In this document: piece after piece, positions 13,060 through 27,749 of the stretch | Numbering within the stretch: the first letter of the stretch is position 1 | Layout: the number at the start of each line of letters is the position of its first letter | NCBI GenBank assembly: GCA_963756245.1 | Contig: CAVWOI010000025.1 | Coordinates: 6,245-70,244, forward strand | Origin: an uncultured Alphaproteobacteria bacterium | GTDB taxonomy: Bacteria; Pseudomonadota; Alphaproteobacteria; Rhizobiales; Xanthobacteraceae | Length of the DNA: 64,000 bases | Reading direction: 5' to 3' | The notes under the pieces: model-generated | The model's database searches: none | What the model was told of the DNA's origin: nothing | The model's input: only the letters and a program-made list of their open reading frames with translations | Program-made: the position numbers and the translations under genes

Positions 13060-13236
13060 TTGCGATCTCCATTGAGCCTGTCGCCTGCACTTGGAGATAA
13101 GCACTGGGACCTAAGCGCGCCAGCCGCGACCGCGACGCCGAGCGCCGATGCCTTCCAACGCTGAAGATTCGACCCGCACGCCGGCGGAAACCCTCTAGAC
13201 TCGCCACCGCGCGGGCATACATTTGCTGGCCGATGC

Positions 13237-14403
13237 ATGAGGCCAATGACTGACGAACGCGTCCTGCCCGCCAGGAGTGGTTTGATGGCTTATCGTTTCC
13301 TCCCGAGGAAAACCGCGATCGCCGCGGTTATCTTGAGCATCGGCTGCGCGGCCGCCGTGGCGCAGACGCCGCCCCCGCCGCCGGCGGTCACCGTGAGCCC
13401 GGTGGCCAATCGTCAAGTCACCGAGACCGGCGACTTCGTCGGCCGCGTGGTAGCGATCGACAAGGTCGACGTCGTCGCGCGCGTTGCGGGTTTCATCGAG
13501 CAGCGCAATTTCACCGAGGGCCAGCTGGTCAAGACCGGAGACCTGCTGTTTCGTATCGAACAGGACACCTACAAGGCGGCGGTCGATCAGCAGAACGCCA
13601 ATCTCGCCAAGGCCAAGGCCACCGAGGTCAACGCCAACCTGCAGCTGCAGCGCAGCCAGACGCTGGTCAAAAACCAGAACGTCCCGCAAGCCACCGTCGA
13701 TCAGAACGAGGCCACCGAGCTGGCCGCACAGGCCGACGTGTTGCAGGCCCAGGCGCTGCTCGAGCAGGCCAAGATCAATCTCGCCTACACGGAAATTCGC
13801 TCGCCGATCGACGGACGGATCGGCATTGCCAATTTCACCATCGGCAATCTCGTCGGCCCGACGTCCGGAAAGCTGGCGACCATCGTCAGCCAGAATCCGA
13901 TCTACGTCACCTTCCAGGCCAGCGAAGCCGACATCATCGAATACCGGCATCGGGTGGCCGCGTCGGCCGACAAGAGCCCGCGCGTCACCATCCACATCAA
14001 GCTGCCCGACGGCTCGATCTATCCGTATGCCGGCGTGACCAACTTTCTCGATGTTCAGGTCGAGGCCGAGACCGATACCGTCGTGGTGCGGGCGCAACTG
14101 CCGAATCCGGATGGGTTGTTGATCCCCAGCGGCATTGTCGGCGTCGTGGTCGAACGCGGCGCGCCGCATAGCTCCCTGGTCGTCGCCCAGTCCGCCGTCC
14201 AGCTCGACCAGGCCGGGCACTATGTCATGGTGGTCGACGACGCCAAGAAGGTCGAATTGCGGCGCATCACCACCGGCAGCGATCAGGGGCGCGACGTCGT
14301 CGTGACCAACGGGCTCAAGGAGGGCGAGCTCGTCATCGTCGAGGGGATTCAGAAAGTCCATCCCGGACAAATCGTGGCGGCGACCGTGGCGCCGGGAAAT
14401 TAA
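13237..14403 (+). CDS. RND efflux periplasmic adaptor (membrane fusion protein)
   Basis: Lipobox LSIGC, coiled-coil hairpin region and beta-barrel strings typical of AcrA/MexA. True start may be ATG 13285 (MAYRF..). Confidence 0.9.
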   Translation: MRPMTDERVLPARSGLMAYRFLPRKTAIAAVILSIGCAAAVAQTPPPPPAVTVSPVANRQVTETGDFVGRVVAIDKVDVVARVAGFIEQRNFTEGQLVKTGDLLFRIEQDTYKAAVDQQNANLAKAKATEVNANLQLQRSQTLVKNQNVPQATVDQNEATELAAQADVLQAQALLEQAKINLAYTEIRSPIDGRIGIANFTIGNLVGPTSGKLATIVSQNPIYVTFQASEADIIEYRHRVAASADKSPRVTIHIKLPDGSIYPYAGVTNFLDVQVEAETDTVVVRAQLPNPDGLLIPSGIVGVVVERGAPHSSLVVAQSAVQLDQAGHYVMVVDDAKKVELRRITTGSDQGRDVVVTNGLKEGELVIVEGIQKVHPGQIVAATVAPGN

Positions 14404-14406
14404 CGG

Positions 14407-17400
14407 ATGTTTTCCGGCATTTTCATCGACCGGCCGCGGTTCGCCGTCGTCATTGCGATCGTCATCACGCTGGCCGGCGCGATCGCGATCTCGGCGATCC
14501 CGATCGCGCAATTCCCCGATATCGTGCCGCCGCAGGTCACGCTGACCGCCAACTATCCCGGCGCCGACGCCGAAGTGGTCGAGACCACCGTGGCGCAACC
14601 GATCGAAGAACAGGTCAACGGCGTCGACAATGCGATCTATTACCAGTCCGCCAGCGGCTCCGACGGCAGCTATACGCTCAACGTGACGTTCGCCCTCGGC
14701 ACGGATCCGGACATCGACACCGTCAACGTGCAGAACCGCGCCAGCCTCGCCATCCCGCAGCTTCCCGACGAGGTGTCGCGCTCCGGCCTGTCGGTGCGCA
14801 AGAAATCCGCAGCCCTGCTTCAGGTCATCAATATCTACTCTCCGAAGAACACCTTCGACGCCGTCTATCTGAGCAACTACGCGACCATCAACATCATCGA
14901 CGCGTTGGCGCGGATCAAAGGCGTCGGCCAGGTCACCTTGTTCGGACCGCTCGATTATTCGCTGCGCATCTGGCTCGATCCGGATCGCCTGACCCAGCTC
15001 AACCTGACGCCGAACGACGTCATCGCGGCGGTGCAGAACCAGAACGTTCAGGCGGCGCTCGGCCGCGTCGGCGCCGCGCCGACCGGACGCGAGCAGCAGC
15101 TCCAGATCAACATCAAGACCAAGGGCAGGCTGACGCGGCCGGAGGAATTCGCCGGCATCATCCTGCGCGCCAATCCCGACGGTTCGGTGATCCGGATCGA
15201 CGACGTGGCGAGAGTCGAAATGGGGGCGCGATCGCAGGATCGCTACAGCCGCTTCAACGGCGCTCCGGCCGCCGCGATCGGCATCTACCAGTCGCCGGGC
15301 TCCAATGCGGTCGACGTGGCCAAGCAGGTCACCAACACCATGAACACGCTGGCGACGCGCTTCCCGGCCGATCTCGCCTATACGATGTTCTTCGATACCA
15401 CCGTCTTCGTCACCTCGACCATCGTCGAGGTGGTGCGTACGCTCGCCATCGCCATCGTCCTCGTCGGCATCGTGGTGTTCCTGTTTCTCGGCAAGGTGCG
15501 GACCACGCTGATCCCGCTGGTCGCGGTGCCGGTGTCGATCATCGGCACGTTCGCCGTGCTGCTGATCATCGGCTATTCGGCCAACACGGTGTCGCTGCTG
15601 GCGCTGGTGCTCGCCATCGGCATTGTCGTCGACGATGCCATCGTGGTGGTCGAGAACATCGAGCGGGTCATCGAGGAGGAGCCGGAGCTCAGCGTGCCGG
15701 ACGCCTGCAAAAAGGCGATGACCGAGATCACCGGCCCGATCCTCGCCATTACCTTCGTGCTGTTGTCGGTGTTCGTGCCGGTGGCCTTCATTCCCGGCAT
15801 CAGCGGCCAGCTGTTCCGCCAATTCGCGGTGGCGGTCTCGGTGGCGATGCTGATCTCGGCGCTCAACGCGCTGACGCTCTCTCCCGCGCTGTGCGCGGTG
15901 CTGCTCAAGCGCGGCCAGCGCAGTGGCGGTGTTATGCGCTACGTGCTGGACGGCATCGACAAGGTTCGCGGCGGCTACGTGGCGGCGGTGCGCCGGCTGT
16001 CGCGGGTGGCGTTGCTCAGTGTCCTGGTCGTTGCCGGCATTCTGGCGGCGTCGGTGCTGCTGTTCCGCGTCACGCCGCAGAGTTTCTTGCCGGACGAGGA
16101 CCAGGGCGCGATCTTCGCCGCCTTGCGGCTGCCGGAAGGCGCTTCCGTCGTTCGCACCGAGGCGGTGGTCAAGCAGGTCGAGGACATCGTCAAGCCGATC
16201 CCCGGCGTCGAAGGCGTGCTGTCGGTGGTCGGGTTGAATTTCATCGACTATGTGGCGGCGTCGAACCAGGCGTTTTTCGTCATTCGGCTGAAACCTTACG
16301 AGGTGCGCAACGATCCGGCGCAGAGCGCCAACGCGATCATTGCGCGGCTGCGGCCGCAACTGGCGGCGATCGAAGGCGCCATCGCTTTTCCGTTCAACCT
16401 GCCGCCGATCCTTGGCTTGGGCAATACCGGCGGTTTCCAATATGTGTTGGAGGCCCTGCAGGGCCAGTCGCCCACCGACGTCGCCGCCGTGTTGCGGGCA
16501 CTGATCGTGGCGGCGAACAGCCGGCCCGAGCTTGCCGCGGTGTTCAGCACCTATGCGGCCGACACGCCGCAGATCTATCTCGATATCGATCGCGACAAGG
16601 CGCAGGTGCTGGGCGTCAAGATTAGCGACATCTTTGCCGCGCTGCAATCGACGCTGGGTAGCTTCTACGTCAACGACTTCAATGTTTTCGGCCGCACCTG
16701 GCAGGTCAACATCCAGGCCGACACGCCGTTTCGCCAGCGCGCCGATGATATCGAACGCATCTATGTGCGCAACGCCACCGGCGGCATGGTGCCGATCCGC
16801 GCGCTGGCGGTGGCCAAGCTGGTGCAGGGGCCGCAGACCGTGGTGCGCTACAACGGCTACCGCGGCGCCGTGGTGAATGGCGCGCCGAAAGCGCCCTTCA
16901 GTTCCGGCCAGGCGCTGGCCGCGATGGAGAGCATATCGGCAACGACGCTGCCGGGCGGCTACACCTACGAATGGACCGGGACGGCGTTCCAGGAGAAAGC
17001 CGCGGCCGGACGTACGGGAATCGTGCTCGGGCTCGCCATTCTGTTCGCTTACCTGTTTCTGGTCGCGCTTTACGAAAGCTGGAATATTCCGGTTCCCGCT
17101 TTGCTGTCGGTCAGCGTCGGCATTCTCGGCGCGCTCGCCGCGGTGAAGATCGCCGGGCTGAGCTTCGACGTCTACGCACAGATTGGTCTTGTCTCGCTCA
17201 TCGCGCTGGCCGCCAAGAACGGCATATTGATCGTCGCCTTCGCGGTGGAACAGCGCGGCCTCGGCAAGGACGCCGTCGCGGCCGCCGTCGAAGCCGCGGC
17301 ATTGCGCTTTCGTCCCGTGATGATGACGAGCTTTGCCTTCATCTTCGGGCTGTTTCCGCTGGTGATCGCCAAAGGCGCGGGCGCGGCGTCGCGCCAGGCG

Positions 17401-17607
17401 GTGGGCACGCCGGTCTTCGGTGGCATGATCGCGGCGGCGGTTTTCGGCGTCTTTCTCATTCCGCTGCTTTTCATCGTCGCCGAACGCTTGCGGACGCGGA
17501 CCCCGGGCACTGGTCAGCCGTCGCCGCATATCCGGCCGCCCGCTATCTACCCGGCATTGCGCCGACTTTGGCGCCGCTCACTGCGGGCGCTTCGGGCGCG
17601 ATCCTGA
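14407..17607 (+). CDS. RND efflux permease (HAE-1, AcrB/MexB family)
   Basis: 1,066 aa. [20 protein letters not shown].. N-terminus and 12-TM architecture with two large loops. Starts 4 nt after the adaptor gene. Confidence 0.95.
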
Positions 17608-18898: not shown

Positions 18899-20242
18899 AT
18901 GACGAAAACCGATCCGGTACAGGCCTTCGAGGCGCGCTTCAAGATGTACGGCCTCGACGGCCGGGCGCTCGACATCCTCGCCGAAGTCTGGCCGGTGATC
19001 GAACCGACGCTGGACCAGGCGATCGCCGAGATCATCACCGCGATCCGCTTCCTGCCCCGCGTTGGCGAGATCGTCGCCAGGAACGCGGAGCTCTACAAAA
19101 AACTCGAAGCCGCGCATTTCCGCGCGCTGCTCGGCGGCAAGCTTGACGGCGCTTACGCCGAATCGTGCCGGCACACCGTGGCGCAGGAGGCGGCGATCGG
19201 GCTCGATGCCCGCGTGCGCTCTACCGCCGGCAGTTACGTGCTCAAGGCGGCGCTCGATGCGCTGGCGCGCAAGTATTGGTTTTCCGCCGCGAAAGTCGCC
19301 GAGCGCGGCCGGGTCGTGTCGCAGGCCATCAGCTTCGACGTCGCCAACGCCATGACCTTGCATCGCCAGGCCGCCGAGCAGGCGAGCGCGGCACGGCGCG
19401 GCGCCATCGACGACGCGATCACGGAATTTGCCGGCGCCATCGGCGAAGTGGTCGAGGCGATCAAGGAAGCCTCGGGCTCGCTGACCGCGACCTGCTCGAC
19501 GCTCAACCAGGTCGCCGACGATACCCGCGGCCGCATGGCCTCGGCATCGTCGGCTTCGGCCGAGACCACGCAACGCATGGCGGCGACGGTGGCCGCCACC
19601 GAAGCGTTGTCGGAATCCATCGACGAGATCGGCCAGCAGTCGACCCGCGGCTTGAGCATGGCGCAGTCGGCGGCGACCGACGCCGCGCGCACGCAAGACG
19701 TCATCCGCTCGCTCGACGACGCCGCCGAGCGCATCGGCTCCGTGGTCGGCGCGATTTCGGCGATCGCGGCGCAGACCAATCTGCTGGCGCTCAACGCCAC
19801 CATCGAGGCGGCGCGCGCCGGCGAAGCCGGCAAGGGCTTTGCCGTGGTCGCCGCCGAAGTGAAGACGCTCGCCAACCAGACCTCGCGCGCCACCGACGAC
19901 ATCTCGCACCAGGTCGCCGCCATCCAGGACGCGACCAAGCGCTCGGTCGAGGAAATCTCCTCGATCGCGCGCGCCATCGGCGAGCTCACCGGCGTCTCGA
20001 CCAGCATCGCGTCGGCGGTGCAGGAGCAGGCGGCGACGACCAGCGCCATTGCCGAAAGCATTCAGGACGCCGCCGGCCACACCTCGCAAGCCTCGAGCGA
20101 AATCGGCTCCGCCGCCGAGGCGGTGACCCGCGGCGACGGCGCCGTCGGCGAAATCACCACCTGGACGGCGCGGCTGTCGGCGCGCGCCCACGATCTGGAA
20201 ACCAAGGTGGCGACCTTCTTCACCCGCGTCCGCGCGGCCTAA
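18899..20242 (+). CDS. soluble methyl-accepting chemotaxis protein with globin-coupled-sensor-like N-terminal domain
   Basis: No TM segments. C-terminal MCP signalling hairpin ([35 protein letters not shown]). The N-terminal ~160 aa follow the layout of globin-coupled sensor N-termini. Confidence 0.85.
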
Positions 20243-20243
20243 C

Positions 20244-20481
20244 CCTTTCCGCCCCCGCGAAGCGGGGGAGGGGGACCGCCCGAAGGGCGGTGGAGGGGGC
20301 GCAGGACTCAACGCGACGCAAGAGTCTTGGTGAGGTCCAAACATTTTCGCTCGCTCGCTTCTTATTGCTACGAAATCTTCCGCAACGATAACGAAGCTTA
20401 GAGTCCCGCGCCCCCTCCACCACGGTTCGCTCGCTTCGCGAGCTCCAGTGGTCCCCCTCCCCCGCTTCGCGGGGGCGGAAA
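20244..20481. repeat. long imperfect inverted repeat (REP/MITE-like, family B)
   Basis: Arms ctttccgcccccgcgaagcgggggagggggaccgcc..ggtggagggggcgc (20245-20302) and gcgccccctccacc..ggtccccctcccccgcttcgcgggggcggaaag (20408-20481), around a ~100-bp spacer. Confidence 0.8.
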
Positions 20482-20564
20482 GAAAAGCGGTCTCGTTCTC
20501 GCGATGCATCCGCATCCGAGTTTTGCGCAAGCCAGTGCCACGTGTTCGCCTCCAAAAAAATAAG

Positions 20565-20660
20565 GGGAGGCAGAGCGCCGAAAGGCGCAGATCCTGGGCC
20601 GCATCATCGGATGCGGCGCGCGCTGAGCGCAGCGCGCTCGCCTTTCGGCGCCCTACCACG
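20565..20660. repeat. palindromic element (family B-linked)
   Basis: gagcgccgaaaggcg ... cgcctttcggcgccc outer stem, enclosing ccgcatc atcg gatgcgg and gcgcgctgagcgcagcgcgc inner palindromes. Confidence 0.7.
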
Positions 20661-21056
20661 GCTCTGACCGCGGCGCCGAAGCGCCGCAGCTCAGTCCAGG
20701 CCGCGCTTCACGCGATGCAGCGCGCAGGCGTTACCCGCGCCTTGGCATCGCGCTTAAGCGAAGCACCTCGCGCGCCGGTCGTAATGCCGGCGGGGTCGAT
20801 GCCCGGACCGCCCGGGAGCGGAAGTGACGAGCTTCCGCCCGCAGGAACCGCACCCGCCCCGTCAGTCGGCGTCACCGGTTGACGTCCCCTTACGGTGGGC
20901 GGGATCAGGCCCGGTAATGCAATCGCGCCGCCCATGTCAAATGATTCGTTGCGCGCGAATTTGTCTCGATAATTCGCGCGGTTAGGCGCCGCGCTTTTTT
21001 GCGCGGCGAACGCCGGCGCTTATCGCGCGCAGAGACGGCAAAGATTCGCAACGCTA

Positions 21057-21086
21057 GGATGGGTAGAGCGAAGCGAAACCCATCAC
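21057..21086. repeat. REP half-element (family C)
   Basis: ggatgggtagagcgaagcgaaacccatcac. Same family as the inverted pair at 25755-25836. Confidence 0.75.
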
Positions 21087-21133
21087 TTTCTAGACGAGCC
21101 GCCGTGGGTTAAAATAAATGTGGAGATCGTGCG

Positions 21134-21346
21134 ATGGACGCAACGCTGATTTTGATCGATAGCGCAGCAGAACTGGGCCGCGCCCGCGCGCTCGTCGAAC
21201 GGCTATGGGATTCAAACGATCCGGCCGACATCGAACGGCTGCAGGCGCAAGCGCGTCTGATCGAAGTCTATGAGGAGAGCAAATGGCCGCGGCGGCCGGC
21301 GAGCACCGCAGCGCTGATCCGACACCTGATGGATCAATATTCGTAG
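21134..21346 (+). pseudogene. truncated HigA-like antitoxin (N-terminal half only, HTH lost)
   Basis: 70-aa ORF. ARALVERLWDSNDPADIERLQAQARLIEVYEE...LIRHLMDQY parallels E. coli HigA (..ALELVDHLLLNDPENPLLDL..ITAWEE...VIRTLMDQYGLT..). It stops where the HTH should begin, at the edge of a REP element. Confidence 0.55.
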
Positions 21347-21431
21347 CCCGGAGTGAGCGCAGCGAAATCCGGGAACGCCAGTCCAGCTCGCGACGGCGGC
21401 CCCGGATTTCACTTCGTTCAATCCGGGCTAC
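21343..21431. repeat. REP inverted pair (family D)
   Basis: gtagcccggagtgagcgcagcgaaatccggg (21343-21373) and cccggatttcacttcgttcaatccgggctac (21401-21431). Confidence 0.85.
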
Positions 21432-21436
21432 GCTCG

Positions 21437-21766
21437 CTAGTCCGTCAACGCGGTCAGCATCTTTGCGGCGCGGCTCAATTCGTTGTTGTTGAGCTTGGAC
21501 AGCTGAATGTTGATCCGCTGCAGCAGCCGGCCGCGCTCGCCGGTCGGCACCGTCATGGTGCCGGCGCTGAACAGAACGGCTTCCGGGACTTCGAGAACGC
21601 GCGCGATCTTCTCAATTGATTCGAAGGACGGCGCCACGTTGCCGCGCTCGATCTTGCCGACCATGGCGACCGACAGTTCGAGTGCATCCGCGAGCTCGCG
21701 CTGGTTCATGTCCCGCGCTTTGCGGTAATGGCGCACGTTGGCTCCGAACGACTCTCTCAAGGTCAC
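21437..21766 (-). CDS. XRE-family HTH transcriptional regulator
   Basis: NVRHYRKARDMNQRELADALELSVAMVGKIERGNVAPSFESIEKIARVLEV is a Cro/C1-type HTH. Start at GTG 21766, 5 nt after ggaggtg. Confidence 0.8.
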   Translation of the reverse strand: MTLRESFGANVRHYRKARDMNQRELADALELSVAMVGKIERGNVAPSFESIEKIARVLEVPEAVLFSAGTMTVPTGERGRLLQRINIQLSKLNNNELSRAAKMLTALTD

Positions 21767-21901
21767 GGCGCACCTCCGCCGCGAACCTGATCTAGCGCTA
21801 TTTCCGCGCAAGCGATTGCAGGTAGATAATTGTAATAATAGTGACTTGAAAGTACGCTTTATACAATTTATAGCTTATCAATACACGCGGGAGGAGGCCC
21901 C
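21767..21901. promoter_or_regulatory. AT-rich divergent promoter/operator region between the two XRE genes
   Basis: Local AT-rich block 21815-21885. Inverted heptamers aattgta (21828-21834) and tacaatt (21862-21868). Near-palindrome tatacaatttata. Confidence 0.4.
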
Positions 21902-22297
21902 GTGCAGGGCTCGCGCAAAACAGATGCTTACGACCGCGAGGTCGGCCTGCGGGTGCGTACGCTGCGCATATCCCGCCGCATGTCGCAAAGCGACCTCGGC
22001 GAAAGGCTCGGCATCACTTTCCAGCAGATTCAGAAATACGAAAACGGCGCGAACCGCATCGGCGCCGGGCGTCTGCAACGCATCGCCGAGATTTTCGAGG
22101 TGCCGGTCGCGGCGCTGTTTGGGGCGAGCCGGCGCGAGGGCAGGGCAGGCGTCGACCCCTTCGAAGGGCTGCGCACCCCGGGCGCGGTGCAACTGCTCGA
22201 AGCCTACGGCCGCATCGGCGACCGCGTGATCCGCCGCGCGTTCCTGCGCTTTGCCGAGCAAGTGGCCGTGACCTCGCAGCGATCAAGCCGCCGTTAG
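21902..22297 (+). CDS. XRE-family HTH transcriptional regulator
   Basis: GLRVRTLRISRRMSQSDLGERLGITFQQIQKYENGANRIGAGRLQRIAEIFEVPVAALF is an HTH family abundant in Rhizobiales. GTG start preceded by gggaggagg. Confidence 0.8.
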   Translation: MQGSRKTDAYDREVGLRVRTLRISRRMSQSDLGERLGITFQQIQKYENGANRIGAGRLQRIAEIFEVPVAALFGASRREGRAGVDPFEGLRTPGAVQLLEAYGRIGDRVIRRAFLRFAEQVAVTSQRSSRR

Positions 22298-22457
22298 AGA
22301 CCGGAGCATGCGCACCCCATTCGCCCCGCTTCGCGGCGGCGGATGAGCGCGATCACCCTCGCAACGTGACGCAACAGAGGGCGCAGCAAAATCCGAATGC
22401 AGCAGTGCCGCCCTCGATAGCGGCCCCGAACTTCGCTGCGATCAATCAGAGCTATTT

Positions 22458-25400
22458 TCAATCAGTCTTAAGCTTTGATATAAGTTGATCCTTCTTATAA
22501 TCCTGTAGTTGTTTGCTAATGAATTTGCTTCTCTCGGCACCGCGCGCGCCCGTTACGTCTGCACTAAGGTCCGCCATTAAGCGCCGGTATTGTGTGTCTA
22601 GAGCTTCGTCTTGCAATGGAAAGCGCACATATCCGTCAAGCAATTTTACAAATAGCGATTCGCAAAAGAATTGACGCTCGTCCAGCGAATTCCTGAGCGA
22701 CTCTACTCGCCGGATAAATTCAGGCAAACGCAAATCTAGATACAAGCCCTCATTTAAGAATCTAATTGTGATCGATTCATTCCCGGCCGGGCTTCTCTCG
22801 GCCAACATCAGACGGAGCTTCTCGGTTCCCAAATTATCTCTAAGCAACGCGGACACTAGATTGGGTATTCCCACGAGCAGAGAGCGAAGCACAAACGGCT
22901 TCATTTCGCCAAAAACCTTTCCAAGATTTATCGTGGCCCCGCCCACTTTCAGATCAGTATCGAACGCGGTTCGTAACATCACAATTACATAGCCGATGAG
23001 ACGGCCCCATGCATTTAAAATAATACTCAAGTGGTGCGACTTTTTCTCAGCTCCAATCTCTTCAAGGTTCTTTAGCGCAATGGTATAGACGCGCAGGGTG
23101 GTGAACCATTCTATTGCTACGGAACCAACCTCGGGGCGAGCCAACTCTCTGGGTTTAACTGCTACCTCCGGCCCCTCGTGGTGGTCGAGTAATTCATCCC
23201 TTTCCTTATCTGTGAGTTCCCTTTCAAGTAACTGTTCCGTTACGGATGCAAACATAGCTTCAATACTCTTGTCCCTCGGTAACTCAAATCCATCTACCAT
23301 CGGCAAGCCGGGGAGGCCTGGAAATTCTTTGCCCAAGCGTTCGTCGACATCTAAAAATCTTTTTTCCAATGCTTCAATTATTTCATCGTCAAAACGCTTT
23401 AGACCACAATATATATCTATCTCTTGCGGAAAACGGTGCGCCGAATTGATAATATCCAACTCGAAGTCTCTGCTTATTACCATCCGTTGCGCGGCAAAAT
23501 ATGCAAGAAACATATCATGTTGAAACTGCACGTTGTTGCCCACCAGTGAAAAAAGGCGGGCATCGCAGAAACTCCTGATTAACCCCTGAATATCCTGTTC
23601 GAATCCAATTTCGTTTAGATACGTAGCGCACCAGGAGTAGATTTGGGCGAAATCTACCGAATATACGTTCGTTTCTGTCATTCTTTGAGCAAGATACGCG
23701 AGGAGGCCAACTCTATTGTGGTAGTCAAAGACCTCGCGCCTTGCGTCCAGCTTGGCTTTTCCGAGAACTTTCTCGACAAAATTTTCCACAAGCGATGCTG
23801 TGTTTGTCGGCTGGAATGACGCGTCCTGTTCAAATACTCGAAACAGCAAACTTAGATAGACCGGTGTTAGCGGTAAGCCCAATTGTCGAAACCGAGCGAT
23901 GATTTGATCCAAAGCCACGTCGATGTTGACGGATAGTGGGGGCTTCGATCTTCGAATGAATTCCCTGACCTGTGACCGAGAGTAGGCTTGAACGTGAAGG
24001 GTGTCGGTAATGTTGGGAAACTCTAGCTCTAACAAAGCATCAATCTTTCCGCTGAATGTGCTTCGTACCAATATGATAAATTGGTTGCGATGAAAATTCT
24101 CCACTAATTTCCTAATGAACTCATTTTGCTCCGTATTAGTCGGGCTGACGTTTTCGAATATGATTAGCGCAAGACCCTCGGCCAATATTACATCAAGGCT
24201 CCTGCCGAGGGAGGTAAGGTCGGGCGCTTGGGCTTTTAGCAGTCCGATGAAAGACGCGGGATAGTTTCGGAGATTAGCGCAGTCTATTATGAGCGGTAGA
24301 CGAGGGGTAGTCGTCGTGCTGCCTTTCAGCAAGTAGTTCAATGCGATTTGTCTCGCCAGGCTTGTTTGCCCATGTTCAAAAGGGCAAAATATAAGCACGT
24401 TATTTTTGTAATCCAAAATGCGTTCGAATAAGACTCTCGTGTAAGTAAAGGGGTCTGTCGATGTTTGCTCCTCTTTCTTTGTCACGTCGATTCGAGCGAG
24501 CGGCGGACAGACGAAAACATCCGATAGTTTCTTACCAGTAGTTGTTTCGTTGAAATAATCTAGCTTCTCTACAAGAGCCACCTCAGCAAGCCATCGACGA
24601 TATCTCTTGAGATTTATCCTGAGTGGCTGATTAACCCAAAAGTTCTTTGACTCGGTGTTAACATAGAAAACTCCCTGAGGCGCGACGTTTTCGCCAACCC
24701 GAAATGCGCGTTGGTTGTCGAAATACGTTTGAAAGGTCACCTCGACACGAGTGCGATCTGGAGCAAGAGAAATTATGCAATACCCATTCAAATAATTTCT
24801 GCTAGAAAATAAAGATGGAGCTTGGACGAACGCCGTGCTCCCGAGAGGCGATGTTAGCGTTGCCGGTTCTGCCCGATGCAAGTGTCCAAAAAGATGAATC
24901 TTTGACTTATGATTAATTGTCCTTTGTAGTTCTGAGGCGCTGTCGTCCTGAAACCAGGCAAGCGGGTGATGTTGCAGCGAAATAATGTGCCTATCAGCAA
25001 GAACTTTCCCAAATGCCTCATTTAATGCGAGATCCGGAAAATTGAGCCGTCCGTGCTCATTACCCTTCAGAGATGCGACGGAAAACGCGGAGCTATTTAA
25101 TGCCACAAATGCGAGTTTAGCAGTTGGAAAATCCCAAATATTATAGAAGGGGTTGGATTTTGCAGCCTGCGTAGCCGAAAGTGATTTCATAAACTGGGCA
25201 TACGCATCGACCTTCTGGCGAACCAATACTGGAACTTTGCCTGCAGCGTATAAATCGTTGAAATACTTGTGATCGCCCAACCTCGTGCCGATCATATCCA
25301 ATTCTGAGGGCAGATCTTCGCAAGCTTTGCGACTTACATCATGATTTCCCGAGCCAAAAACAAAGCTATCTAGATCAATCGATGTGGTTTCAAGAATCGG

Positions 25401-25613
25401 AATTAAAAGCATCTCCATGAAATAATCATAGGCTTGATCTTCATCTGGATCATTTACGAGGTCTCCAGAAAAAACAACATAATGCGGTGCTAAATCGGTA
25501 TCGCATATTTGTGCGAGGTCCTTGATGAATGCGTCAAGGACAATTTTTTGGTCAGTCGCATGGCGACGAGTTATATGGGCGTCGCTCAAACACAGTATGT
25601 TTATGCGCTCCAC
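22458..25613 (-). CDS. metallophosphoesterase-NACHT/STAND-like fusion protein (candidate defence protein)
   Basis: Uninterrupted 1,051-aa ORF in AT-rich DNA. GTG start preceded by an aggggggac SD-like run. Domain motifs are listed in the sub-features and finding 1. Confidence 0.85.
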   Translation of the reverse strand: MERINILCLSDAHITRRHATDQKIVLDAFIKDLAQICDTDLAPHYVVFSGDLVNDPDEDQAYDYFMEMLLIPILETTSIDLDSFVFGSGNHDVSRKACEDLPSELDMIGTRLGDHKYFNDLYAAGKVPVLVRQKVDAYAQFMKSLSATQAAKSNPFYNIWDFPTAKLAFVALNSSAFSVASLKGNEHGRLNFPDLALNEAFGKVLADRHIISLQHHPLAWFQDDSASELQRTINHKSKIHLFGHLHRAEPATLTSPLGSTAFVQAPSLFSSRNYLNGYCIISLAPDRTRVEVTFQTYFDNQRAFRVGENVAPQGVFYVNTESKNFWVNQPLRINLKRYRRWLAEVALVEKLDYFNETTTGKKLSDVFVCPPLARIDVTKKEEQTSTDPFTYTRVLFERILDYKNNVLIFCPFEHGQTSLARQIALNYLLKGSTTTTPRLPLIIDCANLRNYPASFIGLLKAQAPDLTSLGRSLDVILAEGLALIIFENVSPTNTEQNEFIRKLVENFHRNQFIILVRSTFSGKIDALLELEFPNITDTLHVQAYSRSQVREFIRRSKPPLSVNIDVALDQIIARFRQLGLPLTPVYLSLLFRVFEQDASFQPTNTASLVENFVEKVLGKAKLDARREVFDYHNRVGLLAYLAQRMTETNVYSVDFAQIYSWCATYLNEIGFEQDIQGLIRSFCDARLFSLVGNNVQFQHDMFLAYFAAQRMVISRDFELDIINSAHRFPQEIDIYCGLKRFDDEIIEALEKRFLDVDERLGKEFPGLPGLPMVDGFELPRDKSIEAMFASVTEQLLERELTDKERDELLDHHEGPEVAVKPRELARPEVGSVAIEWFTTLRVYTIALKNLEEIGAEKKSHHLSIILNAWGRLIGYVIVMLRTAFDTDLKVGGATINLGKVFGEMKPFVLRSLLVGIPNLVSALLRDNLGTEKLRLMLAERSPAGNESITIRFLNEGLYLDLRLPEFIRRVESLRNSLDERQFFCESLFVKLLDGYVRFPLQDEALDTQYRRLMADLSADVTGARGAERSKFISKQLQDYKKDQLISKLKTD
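22461..23468 (-). other. domain: unassigned helical C-terminal region (aa ~716-1051)
   Basis: Leu/Glu/Arg-rich, helix-like. I can see no TPR, WD40, LRR or other repeat periodicity. Confidence 0.4.
23469..24431 (-). other. domain: NACHT/STAND-like module with degenerate Walker A (aa ~395-715, approximate)
   Basis: NVLIFCPFEHGQTSLARQIA (P-loop position), GLALIIFENV (Walker-B-like), LHVQAYSRSQVREFIRR, LPLTPVYLSLLF, NNVQFQHDMFLAYFAAQ. Confidence 0.6.
24684..25613 (-). other. domain: calcineurin-like metallophosphoesterase (aa 1 to ~310)
   Basis: All five MPP motifs in order: LCLSDAH, FSGDLVND, GSGNHD, SLQHHP, LFGHLH. Confidence 0.8.
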
Positions 25614-25754
25614 GGGGAAGTCCCCCCTATCTCTGGTCGGGATTACTTTCGCGAATTTCGCTGAAGTCTATCGAGGATTATTCGTCATGTCTCGAATCTC
25701 AATTATTACCCACAGGGTGGCCTTGCCTCGCGTAGTCCGAATTAAAGCGGGCCC

Positions 25755-25836
25755 GTAGGAGGGGTAGAGCGCAGCAAAACCCGTCATCTTTGTGCCGGGG
25801 AGCGGTGGGTTTCGCTGCGCTCTACCCACCCTACGA
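25755..25836. repeat. REP inverted pair (family C), also a likely yidC terminator hairpin
   Basis: cgtaggaggggtagagcgcagcaaaacccgtcat (25755-25788) and ggtgggtttcgctgcgctctacccaccctacg (25805-25836). Confidence 0.85.
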
Positions 25837-25865
25837 AGCTACGGAGCGCGTCGGCGTGTGAAAAA

Positions 25866-27749
25866 CTACTCCGCCGGTGTCTTCGGCTTCGGCCGCGCGA
25901 ACGTGCGCTTCAGATTATCCCACAGCTCGATCTTGGCGCCGTTCTTGTGCATGATCACGCTCTGCTGCAGCACCGAGAGCGAGTTGTTCCAGGCCCAGTA
26001 GATCACCAGGCCGGCGGGGAAACTCGCCAGCATGAAGGTGAAGATCAGCGGCATCCAGTTGAAGATCATCTGCTGGGTCGGATCGGGCGGCGCCGGGTTG
26101 AGCTTCATCTGCACCCACATGGTCACGCCCATGATCGCCGGCCAGAAGCCGAGATGCAGGTACGAGCCGAACATCGGGATGATGGTGGGGTCGAACGGGA
26201 TCAGGCCGCCGAGGGTGAAAATGTTGGTCGGGTCTTGCGCCGAAAGATCGTGGATCCAGCCGAAGAACGGCGCGTGCCGCATCTCGATGGTGATGAACAG
26301 CACCTTGTAGAGCGAGAAGAACACCGGGATCTGGATGGCGATCGGCAGGCAGCCGGCCAGCGGATTGATCTGCTCCTTCTTGTAGAGCTCCATCATCGCC
26401 TGCTGCTGCTTCATCTTGTCGTCGGCGTAACGCTCCTTGATCATCGCCATCTGCGGCTGCACCGCCTTCATCTTCGCCATCGAGGCGTAGGATTTATTGG
26501 CGAGCGGGAAGAACAGGAATTTGACAATCACGGTGACGATCAGGATGGCGATGCCGAAATTGCCGACCAGATGGAAGAAGTAGTCGATGGCGAGAAACAT
26601 CGGCTTGGTGATGAAGTAGAACCAGCCCCAGTCGATCAACAGATCGAAATGGTTGAGCCCCAGTTGCTGATTGTAGCCGGGCGCGCCGCCGATCGGGAAA
26701 TTGATGCCGACCACGGACACTTCCTTGGCGCCGGCGAACAGCCGCGCGTCGGCCGCGCCGGTCGCGCCGGGCGCGACGGTCTGCGGCGCCGCCAGATAAT
26801 CGGTCTGGTAGATGTTTACGCCGCCGCTTTCGGCCGCGGAAAAGCGGGCGCGGACCTTTGCGTCGGTGTCGGGCAACAGCGTCGCCGCCCAGTATTTGTC
26901 GGTGATGCCGAGCCAGACATTGGTGGCGTCCCAGCTCTCGCTCTTCTTTTCGTCGATCTTTTTGTAGGTTTCGGTCTGCAAGCCCTGGTCGCCGATCACG
27001 CCGATCAGGCCTTCATGCAGAATGTAATAGCCCTGCACCTTCGGCGTGCCGTGGCGCGAGATCAGCGCGTAGGGAAACAGCGTGACCGGATTGTCGCCTT
27101 TGTTCTGTACCTGGTCTTTGAGGGTGAACAGATAATGGTCGTCGATCGCGATGGTGCGGCGGAAAATCAAGCCGGCGCCGTTGTCATAAGTCAGGGTCAC
27201 CGGGTGGTCGATGTCGAGCGCGCCGGAGCCTTCTTGCTGCCACACCGTGTCCGGTCCCGGCATCGCCGCGGTGGCGCCGGCGGCGGGCACCCAGCCGAAC
27301 TCGGCGTAGTACGCGTCGGGCGCGCCCGACGGCGAGAACAACTCGATCGCTGGCGAAGCCGGATCGATGGTCTCGCGATAGCGCTCGAGCGCGAGATCGT
27401 CGATGCGGCCGCCCTTGAGATTGATGCTGCCGCGCAGCGTCGGCGTTGCGATGGCGATGCGCGGCGAAGCGGCGATCACCGCATCGCGCGATGCGGTCGA
27501 GACCGTGGGCGCGGCCGTGCCGGGAACCGGCGGCGGGGTGGCTGAGCCGGGTGCAGCGCCGGGTGTGGCGCCAGGCTCCGCCGCATTCGGCTGCGTGGTG
27601 CCCGGTTGCGTCTGCGCCTGTTCCTGCTGCTTGATCAGCGCCTGCTCGCGCTGCTTTTGCATCTGCGGATAGCCGACGAGAAATTGCCAGCCGACCACGA
27701 CGATCAGCGACAGCACGATGGCAATGATGGTGTTCTTGTGATCGCCCAT
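25866..27749 (-). CDS. yidC: membrane protein insertase YidC
   Basis: 627 aa. N-terminal TM, large periplasmic domain, and a conserved C-terminal 5-TM core (..MKAVQPQMAMIKERYADDKMKQQQAMMELYKKEQINPLAGCLP..). Confidence 0.95.
   Translation of the reverse strand: MGDHKNTIIAIVLSLIVVVGWQFLVGYPQMQKQREQALIKQQEQAQTQPGTTQPNAAEPGATPGAAPGSATPPPVPGTAAPTVSTASRDAVIAASPRIAIATPTLRGSINLKGGRIDDLALERYRETIDPASPAIELFSPSGAPDAYYAEFGWVPAAGATAAMPGPDTVWQQEGSGALDIDHPVTLTYDNGAGLIFRRTIAIDDHYLFTLKDQVQNKGDNPVTLFPYALISRHGTPKVQGYYILHEGLIGVIGDQGLQTETYKKIDEKKSESWDATNVWLGITDKYWAATLLPDTDAKVRARFSAAESGGVNIYQTDYLAAPQTVAPGATGAADARLFAGAKEVSVVGINFPIGGAPGYNQQLGLNHFDLLIDWGWFYFITKPMFLAIDYFFHLVGNFGIAILIVTVIVKFLFFPLANKSYASMAKMKAVQPQMAMIKERYADDKMKQQQAMMELYKKEQINPLAGCLPIAIQIPVFFSLYKVLFITIEMRHAPFFGWIHDLSAQDPTNIFTLGGLIPFDPTIIPMFGSYLHLGFWPAIMGVTMWVQMKLNPAPPDPTQQMIFNWMPLIFTFMLASFPAGLVIYWAWNNSLSVLQQSVIMHKNGAKIELWDNLKRTFARPKPKTPAE

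Follow-up and report, generated by a model that had tools for sequence, protein, structure and literature searches.

A predicted metallophosphoesterase-STAND immune protein lacking the Walker A lysine in a strain-variable hotspot of an uncultured alphaproteobacterium

DS-8 (WP_032203427.1), a single-protein antiphage system of Escherichia coli that joins a metallophosphoesterase (MPP) to a NACHT module, comes from the DefensePredictor study (Science 2026, PMC13092281), which also validated it and in which the mutations D52A, N84A, and K375A each abolished defence and SMPDL3A/B were reported by the authors as the best match of its MPP. Calcineurin-like phosphoesterases also figure in an earlier list of effectors carried by bacterial NACHT proteins at their N-terminus (Kibby et al.), and in one of these proteins, bNACHT01, replacement of the Walker A lysine (K115A/R) kills defence. 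The combination of an MPP with a STAND module is therefore an architecture already known: PADLOC catalogues it as the candidate PDC-S60, examples had been recorded among bacterial NACHT proteins, and DS-8 is a validated case. Here we describe a gene of this architecture (hereafter the MPP-STAND gene; 22458-25613, minus strand) in a 64,000-nucleotide stretch of contig CAVWOI010000025.1 from the uncultured Alphaproteobacteria assembly GCA_963756245.1 (positions 6,245 to 70,244; hereafter the window). We consider it likely that this horizontally acquired gene specifies a stand-alone immune protein of the PDC-S60 type, a distant sister of DS-8 that would act by the mechanism proposed below. This assessment derives from its homology to PDC-S60 and DS-8, its foreign origin, its position in a hotspot, the mobile or defence neighbours of its homologues, and its architecture. 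What is new in the sequences analysed here is a well-populated subfamily that lacks the Walker A lysine, is under purifying selection, and keeps the rest of the nucleotide pocket.

A preliminary description, made from the DNA letters of the window, had placed the protein in the class of effector-STAND-sensor proteins with an MPP effector. This placement is supported by the PDC-S60 match, the homology to DS-8, and the MPP and NLR-like structural models, with a defence role assigned by analogy. The accompanying statement that no characterised example carried such an effector has been superseded by DS-8 (PMC13092281) and by the earlier computational lists of calcineurin-like effectors.

Domain architecture and likeness to described systems

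The MPP-STAND gene is a complete, minus-strand open reading frame (ORF) of 3,156 nt running from a GTG start to a TGA stop and encoding 1,051 aa, in which an MPP, a STAND NTPase, and a helical C-terminal domain follow one another. A Shine-Dalgarno-like run (GGGGGG, 25622-25627, minus strand) lies 8 nt upstream of the GTG (25613-25611), and the choice of start is supported by the homologues, which begin at the equivalent residue with M-[EG]-R-I-N-I-L. The ORF, its start codon, and the G-run had all been read correctly in the preliminary description, and the strings quoted there are all found in the translation, namely the P-loop position NVLIFCPFEHGQTS, the Walker B strand GLALIIFENV, and the later post-NTPase strings.

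Profile comparisons indicate that the MPP-STAND protein is a distant homologue of DS-8 and not an equivalog. When the family alignment was compared by hhalign with an alignment of the DS-8 lineage, the two matched at 99.95% (E 1.7e-37) over 640 columns extending from the MPP to the winged helix, at ~20% identity. Sequence of DS-8 itself covered the first 399 aa (Table S8, PMC13092281) and was complemented by fragments and by a Citrobacter protein of 635 aa with 81% identity. The NCBIfam model DS8_antiphage (NF053861) matched with an E-value of 4e-40 and 137.3 bits, against an equivalog cut-off of 790. DS-8 and the MPP-STAND protein are each a single chain of ~1,000 aa in which an MPP at the N-terminus is followed by a NACHT-like STAND module and a further, C-terminal region; D51 and N90 stand at the positions of DS-8 D52 and N84, and the MPP fold is SMPDL3A/B-like in both. 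They differ in the Walker A motif, which reads GDEFCGKS with the required K375 in DS-8 but CPFEHGQT with Q416 here, and also in the PADLOC sub-model of PDC-S60 that they match best, PDLC05050 in the case of DS-8 relatives and PDLC05051 in that of the MPP-STAND protein. The match to PDLC05051 (PADLOC-DB v2.0.0; E 1.1e-75, 253 bits), scored without PADLOC's own thresholds, covered aa 4-867 against profile positions 1-857 of 1027. Relatives with a canonical Walker A motif score 256-388 bits against PDC-S60. The MPP-STAND protein leaves the last ~170 profile positions unmatched. A full-text literature search for the name PDC-S60 returned no paper, and the system is a computational candidate without a published mechanism. 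Likewise, no paper was found by combining metallophosphoesterase, NACHT, and anti-phage as search terms.

The calcineurin-like MPP domain (aa 1-300; 24714-25613, minus strand) was delimited by Pfam, an AlphaFold2 (AF2) model, Foldseek, and family-invariant residues. The Pfam family PF00149 matched aa 5-247 with 35.6 bits (gathering score 21.5), and the motif set D-x-H / G-D / G-N-H-[DE] / H / G-H-x-H is complete (D11, H13, D51, N90, H91, H215, H244, and H246). These eight residues are invariant, wherever the column is filled, among 153 full-length family representatives. The AF2 model of aa 1-330 (pLDDT 93.4, pTM 0.92) has the MPP beta-sandwich fold. At the level of residues the metallophosphoesterase site thus looks intact, as had been proposed from its five motifs in order, and the domain is the predicted effector of the protein. 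A linker between effector and NTPase (aa 301-395; 24429-24713, minus strand) is modelled as beta strands that complete the MPP sandwich followed by a helix, in agreement with the hhalign comparison to the DS-8 family.

A Foldseek search with the MPP model retrieved 148 matches from the PDB at E<=1e-3, and the best 50 listed all belong to the MPP superfamily. Because the top match, 9a6c_B (YydB of Bacillus subtilis), derives from integrative modelling and the protein is uncharacterised, it was set aside for functional inference; a literature search on YydB/YydD found nothing functional. The next nearest folds were Rv0805, Lmo2642, SMPDL3A/B, GpdQ, and purple acid phosphatases (E 1e-11 to 1e-8, template modelling (TM) scores 0.5-0.6), and the PDB sequence-profile search agrees with this ranking (Rv0805/Icc 3e-5, SbcD 5e-4). 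Since the fold is nearest to phosphodiesterases of cyclic nucleotide monophosphates and other nucleotides, we favour a small-molecule substrate: it would most likely be nucleotide-derived (a cyclic or linear nucleotide, or an ATP-like compound) and less likely a nucleic acid.

Alternatively, the effector of the same immune architecture could be a nuclease of the Mre11/SbcD kind that upon activation would degrade the DNA of the phage or of the host; we regard this as rather unlikely. Nucleases are the commonest effectors of STAND proteins, SbcD is among the sequence-profile matches (E 5e-4 to 1e-2), Mre11 occurs lower in the Foldseek ranking (E ~1e-6, TM ~0.45), and the PADLOC model PDLC00736, labelled 'Effector / Endonuclease', matches the MPP domain with 32 bits here and up to 87-90 bits in relatives. 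The matches to Rv0805, Lmo2642, SMPDL3A/B, GpdQ, and purple acid phosphatase are, however, stronger by 3-5 orders of magnitude and higher in TM, no Mre11 capping or DNA-binding domain was detected in the MPP-STAND protein, and SMPDL3A/B are the best match for the MPP of DS-8 too.

The central part of the protein comprises a P-loop nucleotide-binding domain (NBD; aa 396-545, 23979-24428, minus strand), assigned from AF2, Foldseek, and hhalign to the DS-8 family, and a helical plus winged-helix part (aa 546-715; 23469-23978, minus strand), assigned from AF2 and Foldseek. In the AF2 model of aa 331-1051 (pLDDT 81, pTM 0.77) these domains precede a long helical region. The best 31 PDB matches of this model by Foldseek were all NACHT NLRs, namely NOD2, NLRC4, NAIP, NLRP3, and NLRP1 (E 3e-8 to 1e-5), followed by ORC/Cdc6 and Avs4. 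The Walker B strand IIFENVS (aa 484-490; 24144-24164, minus strand) carries the acidic residue E487 behind the hydrophobic IIF, and 152 of 152 relatives have an acid (D or E) at this position. The signature D[GAS]hDE that defines NACHT modules after the Walker B strand (Kibby et al.) is replaced by E-N-V-S-P, read from E487. Pfam NACHT (PF05729) gave no match at E<=1 for the MPP-STAND protein and matched one of 12 relatives (5.5e-4). The family nSTAND_NTPase4 (PF24406), on the other hand, matched aa 651-707, a segment that includes the string NNVQFQHDMFLAYF; the score of 25.1 bits lies under the gathering score of 27, a precomputed annotation of the same protein gives PF24406.2, and 10 of the 12 relatives match (best E 1.5e-9). 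Nothing relevant was found in a literature search on nSTAND4. From these models and profiles the central module is predicted to be a STAND NTPase of the Pfam family nSTAND_NTPase4, with its best structural likeness among NACHT NLRs. The NACHT/STAND label of the preliminary description stands as regards the STAND fold and the NLR-like model, but by its motifs the module is not strictly NACHT, and the family is placed by Pfam in nSTAND4.

The remainder of the protein (aa 716-1051; 22461-23468, minus strand) is an all-helical, family-specific domain in the AF2 model and the presumed sensor. No Pfam domain was detected in the last ~336 aa of any of the 12 relatives and no sequence relative was found in the PDB, which accords with the helical region without a nameable repeat that had been noted from the translation. 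This domain aligns end to end across the family. Its mean pairwise identity is 0.21 (NBD 0.23, MPP 0.29), and being just marginally the most variable part of the protein it offers a weak hint of a sensor role.

Further described systems share parts of this architecture. The MPP-STAND protein resembles bNACHT proteins and eukaryotic NLRs in its succession of nucleotide-binding, helical, and winged-helix domains and in its tripartite arrangement of effector, NTPase, and C-terminal region, but differs from bNACHT in having neither D[GAS]hDE, a Pfam NACHT match, a PADLOC bNACHT match, nor the Walker A lysine. With the Avs (AVAST) proteins it shares the logic of a single-protein STAND defence with an N-terminal effector, and Avs4 (8dgf) is a structural match (E 1.6e-5); on the other hand, this match is weaker than those to NLRs, PADLOC's Avs models gave no match at E<=1, and the TPR-type sensor is lacking here. 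Inactive STAND modules of conflict systems with disrupted NTP-binding motifs (iSTAND and iSTAND2) have been described computationally (Kaur et al. 2020/2021) and are comparable in their altered NTP-binding motif. Unlike the MPP-STAND protein, iSTANDs are parts of multi-gene MoxR-vWA ternary systems and their motifs are eroded, whereas here the replacements are confined to the lysine and the first glycine, the remaining pocket is kept, and the module belongs to a stand-alone effector fusion.

The Walker A position and its clade

The Walker A position of the MPP-STAND protein reads CPFEHGQT (aa 410-417; 24363-24386, minus strand), with Q416 (codon CAA, 24366-24368) in place of the lysine of canonical members, K375 in DS-8. 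Relative to GxxxxGK[ST], the first glycine is replaced by C410 and the lysine by Q416, while G415 and T417 are kept. The preliminary description had located the P-loop correctly but had not flagged the absence of these two residues. The AF2 model has strand beta-1 at aa 405-410, then a loop, then helix alpha-1 with Q416 as its first residue, and hhalign pairs G415-Q416-T417 with G374-K375-S376 of DS-8. An alignment or sequencing artefact at Q416 was considered and rejected, given the start of helix alpha-1, the pairing with K375, and the presence of Q at this position in five other proteins from independent samples.

The family to which this protein belongs is large and varied at this position. 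An exhaustive profile search with HMMER, covering 1.84 billion representative proteins, gave 3,905 clusters at E<=1e-30. Their architecture is uniform, with end-to-end matches (~1,000-1,100 aa) throughout the top 150. Among the 153 full-length representatives, the column of the Walker A lysine holds K in 105, R in 18, A in 12, L in 9, Q in 6, and G in 3. We built a neighbour-joining tree of family representatives (50% clustering level) without the Walker A columns. The Q, A, and G states, together with one R, formed one contiguous clade of ~21 representatives that includes the MPP-STAND protein, the L state formed a second, independent clade of 9, and the other R states were scattered on the tree. 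To our knowledge, the lysine-less MPP-STAND subfamily has no characterised member.

The remaining residues of the pocket are retained in the members with A, L, Q, or G (n = 30). All 30 keep G415, T/S417, and the Walker B acid, 26 keep R546, 28 keep R550, and 21 have a proline at position 411. In six of six Q-members the Walker B residue is Glu in place of Asp. At the sensor-1 position 517, which is an arginine here (R517), K or R is found in 17 of the 21 members of the Q/A/G clade, compared with 9 of 104 canonical-lysine members and 1 of 9 in the L clade. A convergent compensation for the lost lysine by a basic residue at this position was downgraded to a hypothesis, as the independent L clade lacks a basic 517; because the pattern amounts to a single evolutionary event, it suggests compensation without being proof of it.

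Selection on the altered domain was assessed against a 70%-identical homologue by the proportions of nonsynonymous (pN) and synonymous (pS) differences, which are given instead of dN/dS as synonymous sites are saturated. Values of pS were 0.79-0.91, and pN was 0.15-0.23 across all domains and 0.22 in the NBD. Since pN lies far below the saturated pS, the altered NBD is under purifying selection.

These data bear on a further explanation, namely that the gene is a non-functional or decaying relic whose switch was inactivated by loss of the Walker A lysine and whose ORF persists through recent acquisition. Its basis is that K375A kills DS-8 and K115A/R kills bNACHT01, that two of the four closest homologues are disrupted, and that the MPP-STAND protein is a database singleton. 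We consider it improbable: the lysine-less state characterises a clade of ~21 representatives and an independent clade of 9 in which pocket residues are kept, synonymous sites are saturated with respect to the 70% homologue while the pN of the NBD is just 0.22, and an uninterrupted ORF of 3.1 kb in DNA of 46% G+C would be unexpected without selection.

Genomic context and distribution of homologues

The MPP-STAND gene is horizontally acquired, foreign DNA in a strain-variable hotspot. It has 46% G+C overall, with 0.43-0.48 per 500 nt inside the gene versus 0.60-0.70 in the flanks, and its G+C at third codon positions (GC3) is 0.48 versus 0.77-0.89 in nine neighbouring genes; the contrast between an AT-rich gene and G+C-rich flanks, first estimated by eye, is borne out by these values. 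Comparison with the DNA of relatives delimited the hotspot (20242-25859) between two core genes, yidC (25866-27749, minus strand) and a gene for a methyl-accepting chemotaxis protein with a protoglobin domain (protoglobin-MCP; 18899-20242, plus strand). Immediately upstream of the MPP-STAND gene, and read from the same strand, is rpmH-rnpA-yidC. The interval from yidC to the protoglobin-MCP gene varies among Xanthobacteraceae relatives that share these flanks: three (L010-L012) have ~91 nt and no cargo (L010 11894-11984), and three others (L007-L009) have an 873-aa GH113/beta-helix gene and an AbiEii module (L007 11897-16778). The window combines the MPP-STAND gene with two XRE genes, a HigA-like remnant, and REP elements. 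Names attached to the 90% cluster of YidC identify the host as a Xanthobacteraceae metagenome-assembled genome. At the 90% level the cluster of the MPP-STAND protein is a singleton, while that of the adjacent YidC has 47 members. The locus is a clean example of a single un-ameliorated, AT-rich, defence-type cassette in a hotspot flanked by core genes and outside a classical defence island.

Homologues occupy unrelated sites. Full-length relatives (covering at least 80% of the query) were found on 8 of 72,556 plasmids, and a ninth plasmid carried a 67% match; the plasmid hosts are Bacillus, Sinorhizobium, Sphingomonas, Paracoccus, and Klebsiella. No relatives were found among 50,697 phage records. 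A homologue of 70% identity follows groEL (L001 1882-5043), and homologues of 73% (L004 10001-11950) and 29% identity (L002 7945-11046) follow dnaG-rpoD. Another lies in an integrase/resolvase island adjoining an AIPR gene (L005 9574-12727), and two more are near a SIR2_2 gene (L014) and near a primase/AAA_25 pair (L013). On the megaplasmid p_1 of Sinorhizobium meliloti RCAM1750, a full-length relative (QND29610.1; L015 8932-12156) stands beside IS256, a Phd/VapC pair, and an integrase. The check on homologue distribution called for in the preliminary description therefore came out in its favour, with non-syntenic, unrelated sites, several of them near mobile or defence genes. No gene is conserved beside the homologues across these seven loci and the window, which argues for a single-gene system without an obligatory partner.

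Several further observations were made on these loci. Members of the clade are repeatedly found directly downstream of housekeeping operons (groEL, dnaG-rpoD twice, and rpmH-rnpA-yidC) and outside classical defence islands. The MPP-STAND gene and its homologues at L001, L002, L004, and L005 have 42-48% G+C in hosts of 56-65%, and this low G+C persists despite the saturation of synonymous sites between the MPP-STAND gene and its 70% homologue. The low G+C across these five loci points to one of two causes: recent import from an AT-rich pool that has happened repeatedly, or selection that opposes amelioration. At L013 the background itself has 48% G+C, and the more distant homologue at L014 has 57% in a host of 60%. 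The S. meliloti relative carries a K-to-R Walker A motif (SPQEYGRTT) in a cultivable alphaproteobacterium and is a possible model for members with a non-canonical P-loop.

The other elements of the hotspot also have an accessory character. Two XRE/HTH_3 genes (21437-21811, minus strand; 21902-22297, plus strand) were considered as partners of the MPP-STAND gene and rejected, as their GC3 of 0.81-0.82 is host-like and part of one persists in L007 without the MPP-STAND gene. A 70-aa ORF (21134-21346, plus strand) ending in AALIRHLMDQYS, which we take to resemble the N-terminal half of HigA-type antitoxins, is truncated by a repetitive extragenic palindromic (REP)-like element at 21342 and has no Pfam match. 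The two XRE/HTH_3 genes, the REP-like palindromes, and this truncated ORF, which fits a decayed higBA-like locus, agree with the accessory setting proposed earlier. One REP-like palindromic element, shared with the relative L007, lies between the yidC stop and the MPP-STAND gene (25754-25835), and a degenerate one (22376-22454), 72% identical to a copy at 21352-21430, directly follows the MPP-STAND stop codon. Further REP-like elements of the hotspot are at 21342-21432 and 21055-21110; overall they are of two related types and bracket the foreign gene. These elements may serve as marks or mediators of cargo exchange, or may terminate or stabilise transcripts. Elsewhere in the window, long ORFs antisense to acrB (13195-17529, minus strand, 1,444 aa) and to yidC (25947-27545, plus strand, 532 aa) have no Pfam match and are typical high-G+C shadow ORFs, not genes.

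A STAND-type signalling regulator outside immunity, coupling an endogenous ligand to phosphodiesterase activity such as cyclic-nucleotide turnover in host physiology, would fit the role of some STAND NTPases as transcriptional or signalling regulators, the likeness of the MPP to cyclic-nucleotide phosphodiesterases, and the adjoining chemotaxis-receptor gene, but is very improbable in view of the foreign composition of the gene, its absence from close relatives with the same flanking genes, homologues at unrelated insertion sites with mobile or defence neighbours, and family homology to a validated antiphage member and a PADLOC candidate.

Proposed mode of action and implications

By analogy with DS-8, bNACHT, and Avs proteins, from which we infer antiphage activity as well as the trigger, oligomerisation, substrate, and nucleotide dependence, the stand-alone immune protein could work as follows. 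The C-terminal helical domain would keep the protein autoinhibited and recognise a cue of infection. Upon release, the NACHT-like STAND module would change conformation and oligomerise, and oligomerisation would render the N-terminal binuclear metallophosphoesterase active. The active MPP would then hydrolyse a phosphodiester or phosphoanhydride substrate, through which phage replication or the infected cell would be stopped.

Several points weigh against this explanation. DS-8 and bNACHT01 both depend on their Walker A lysine, so that a protein with a natural K-to-Q change could lack function in the canonical sense. The MPP-STAND protein shares just ~20% identity with DS-8 and scores far under the NCBIfam cut-off. 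Two of the four closest homologues are pseudogenes: that at L004 is interrupted by an IS3-family element with HTH_Tnp_1 and rve domains (L004 11978-13131 / L006), and that at L005 is split by a frameshift into ORFs of 151 aa and 908 aa. Disruption of this kind is a frequent fate of defence genes. Next to the MPP-STAND gene the window has no further recognised defence gene, the variability of the C-terminal domain falls short of the hypervariability typical for sensors, and a promoter and terminator scan of the coding strand, which is uninformative for an alphaproteobacterium, found no site of either type, sigma-70-like promoters included.

As to the lysine-less clade, its switch probably binds a nucleotide-like ligand without lysine-dependent hydrolysis. 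More tentatively, the clade may consist of MPP-STAND immune proteins that work without the Walker A lysine, either with the basic, phosphate-contacting residue moved to sensor-1 or with the NBD serving as a non-hydrolysing or nucleotide-independent scaffold for oligomerisation; we see this as possible, though doubtful. If it were true, a prokaryotic NLR-like immune switch would dispense with the very residue whose mutation is used as the universal loss-of-function control in STAND, NLR, and Avs proteins, and the clade would be a natural system in which nucleotide binding is separated from activation. The substrate of the MPP effector could likewise be a new immune-relevant nucleotide. The natural variants Q, A, G, L, and R at the position of the Walker A lysine are useful for mechanistic work on this family, and if the lysine-less proteins still defend, they would place a constraint on models of how NLR-like switches use nucleotides.

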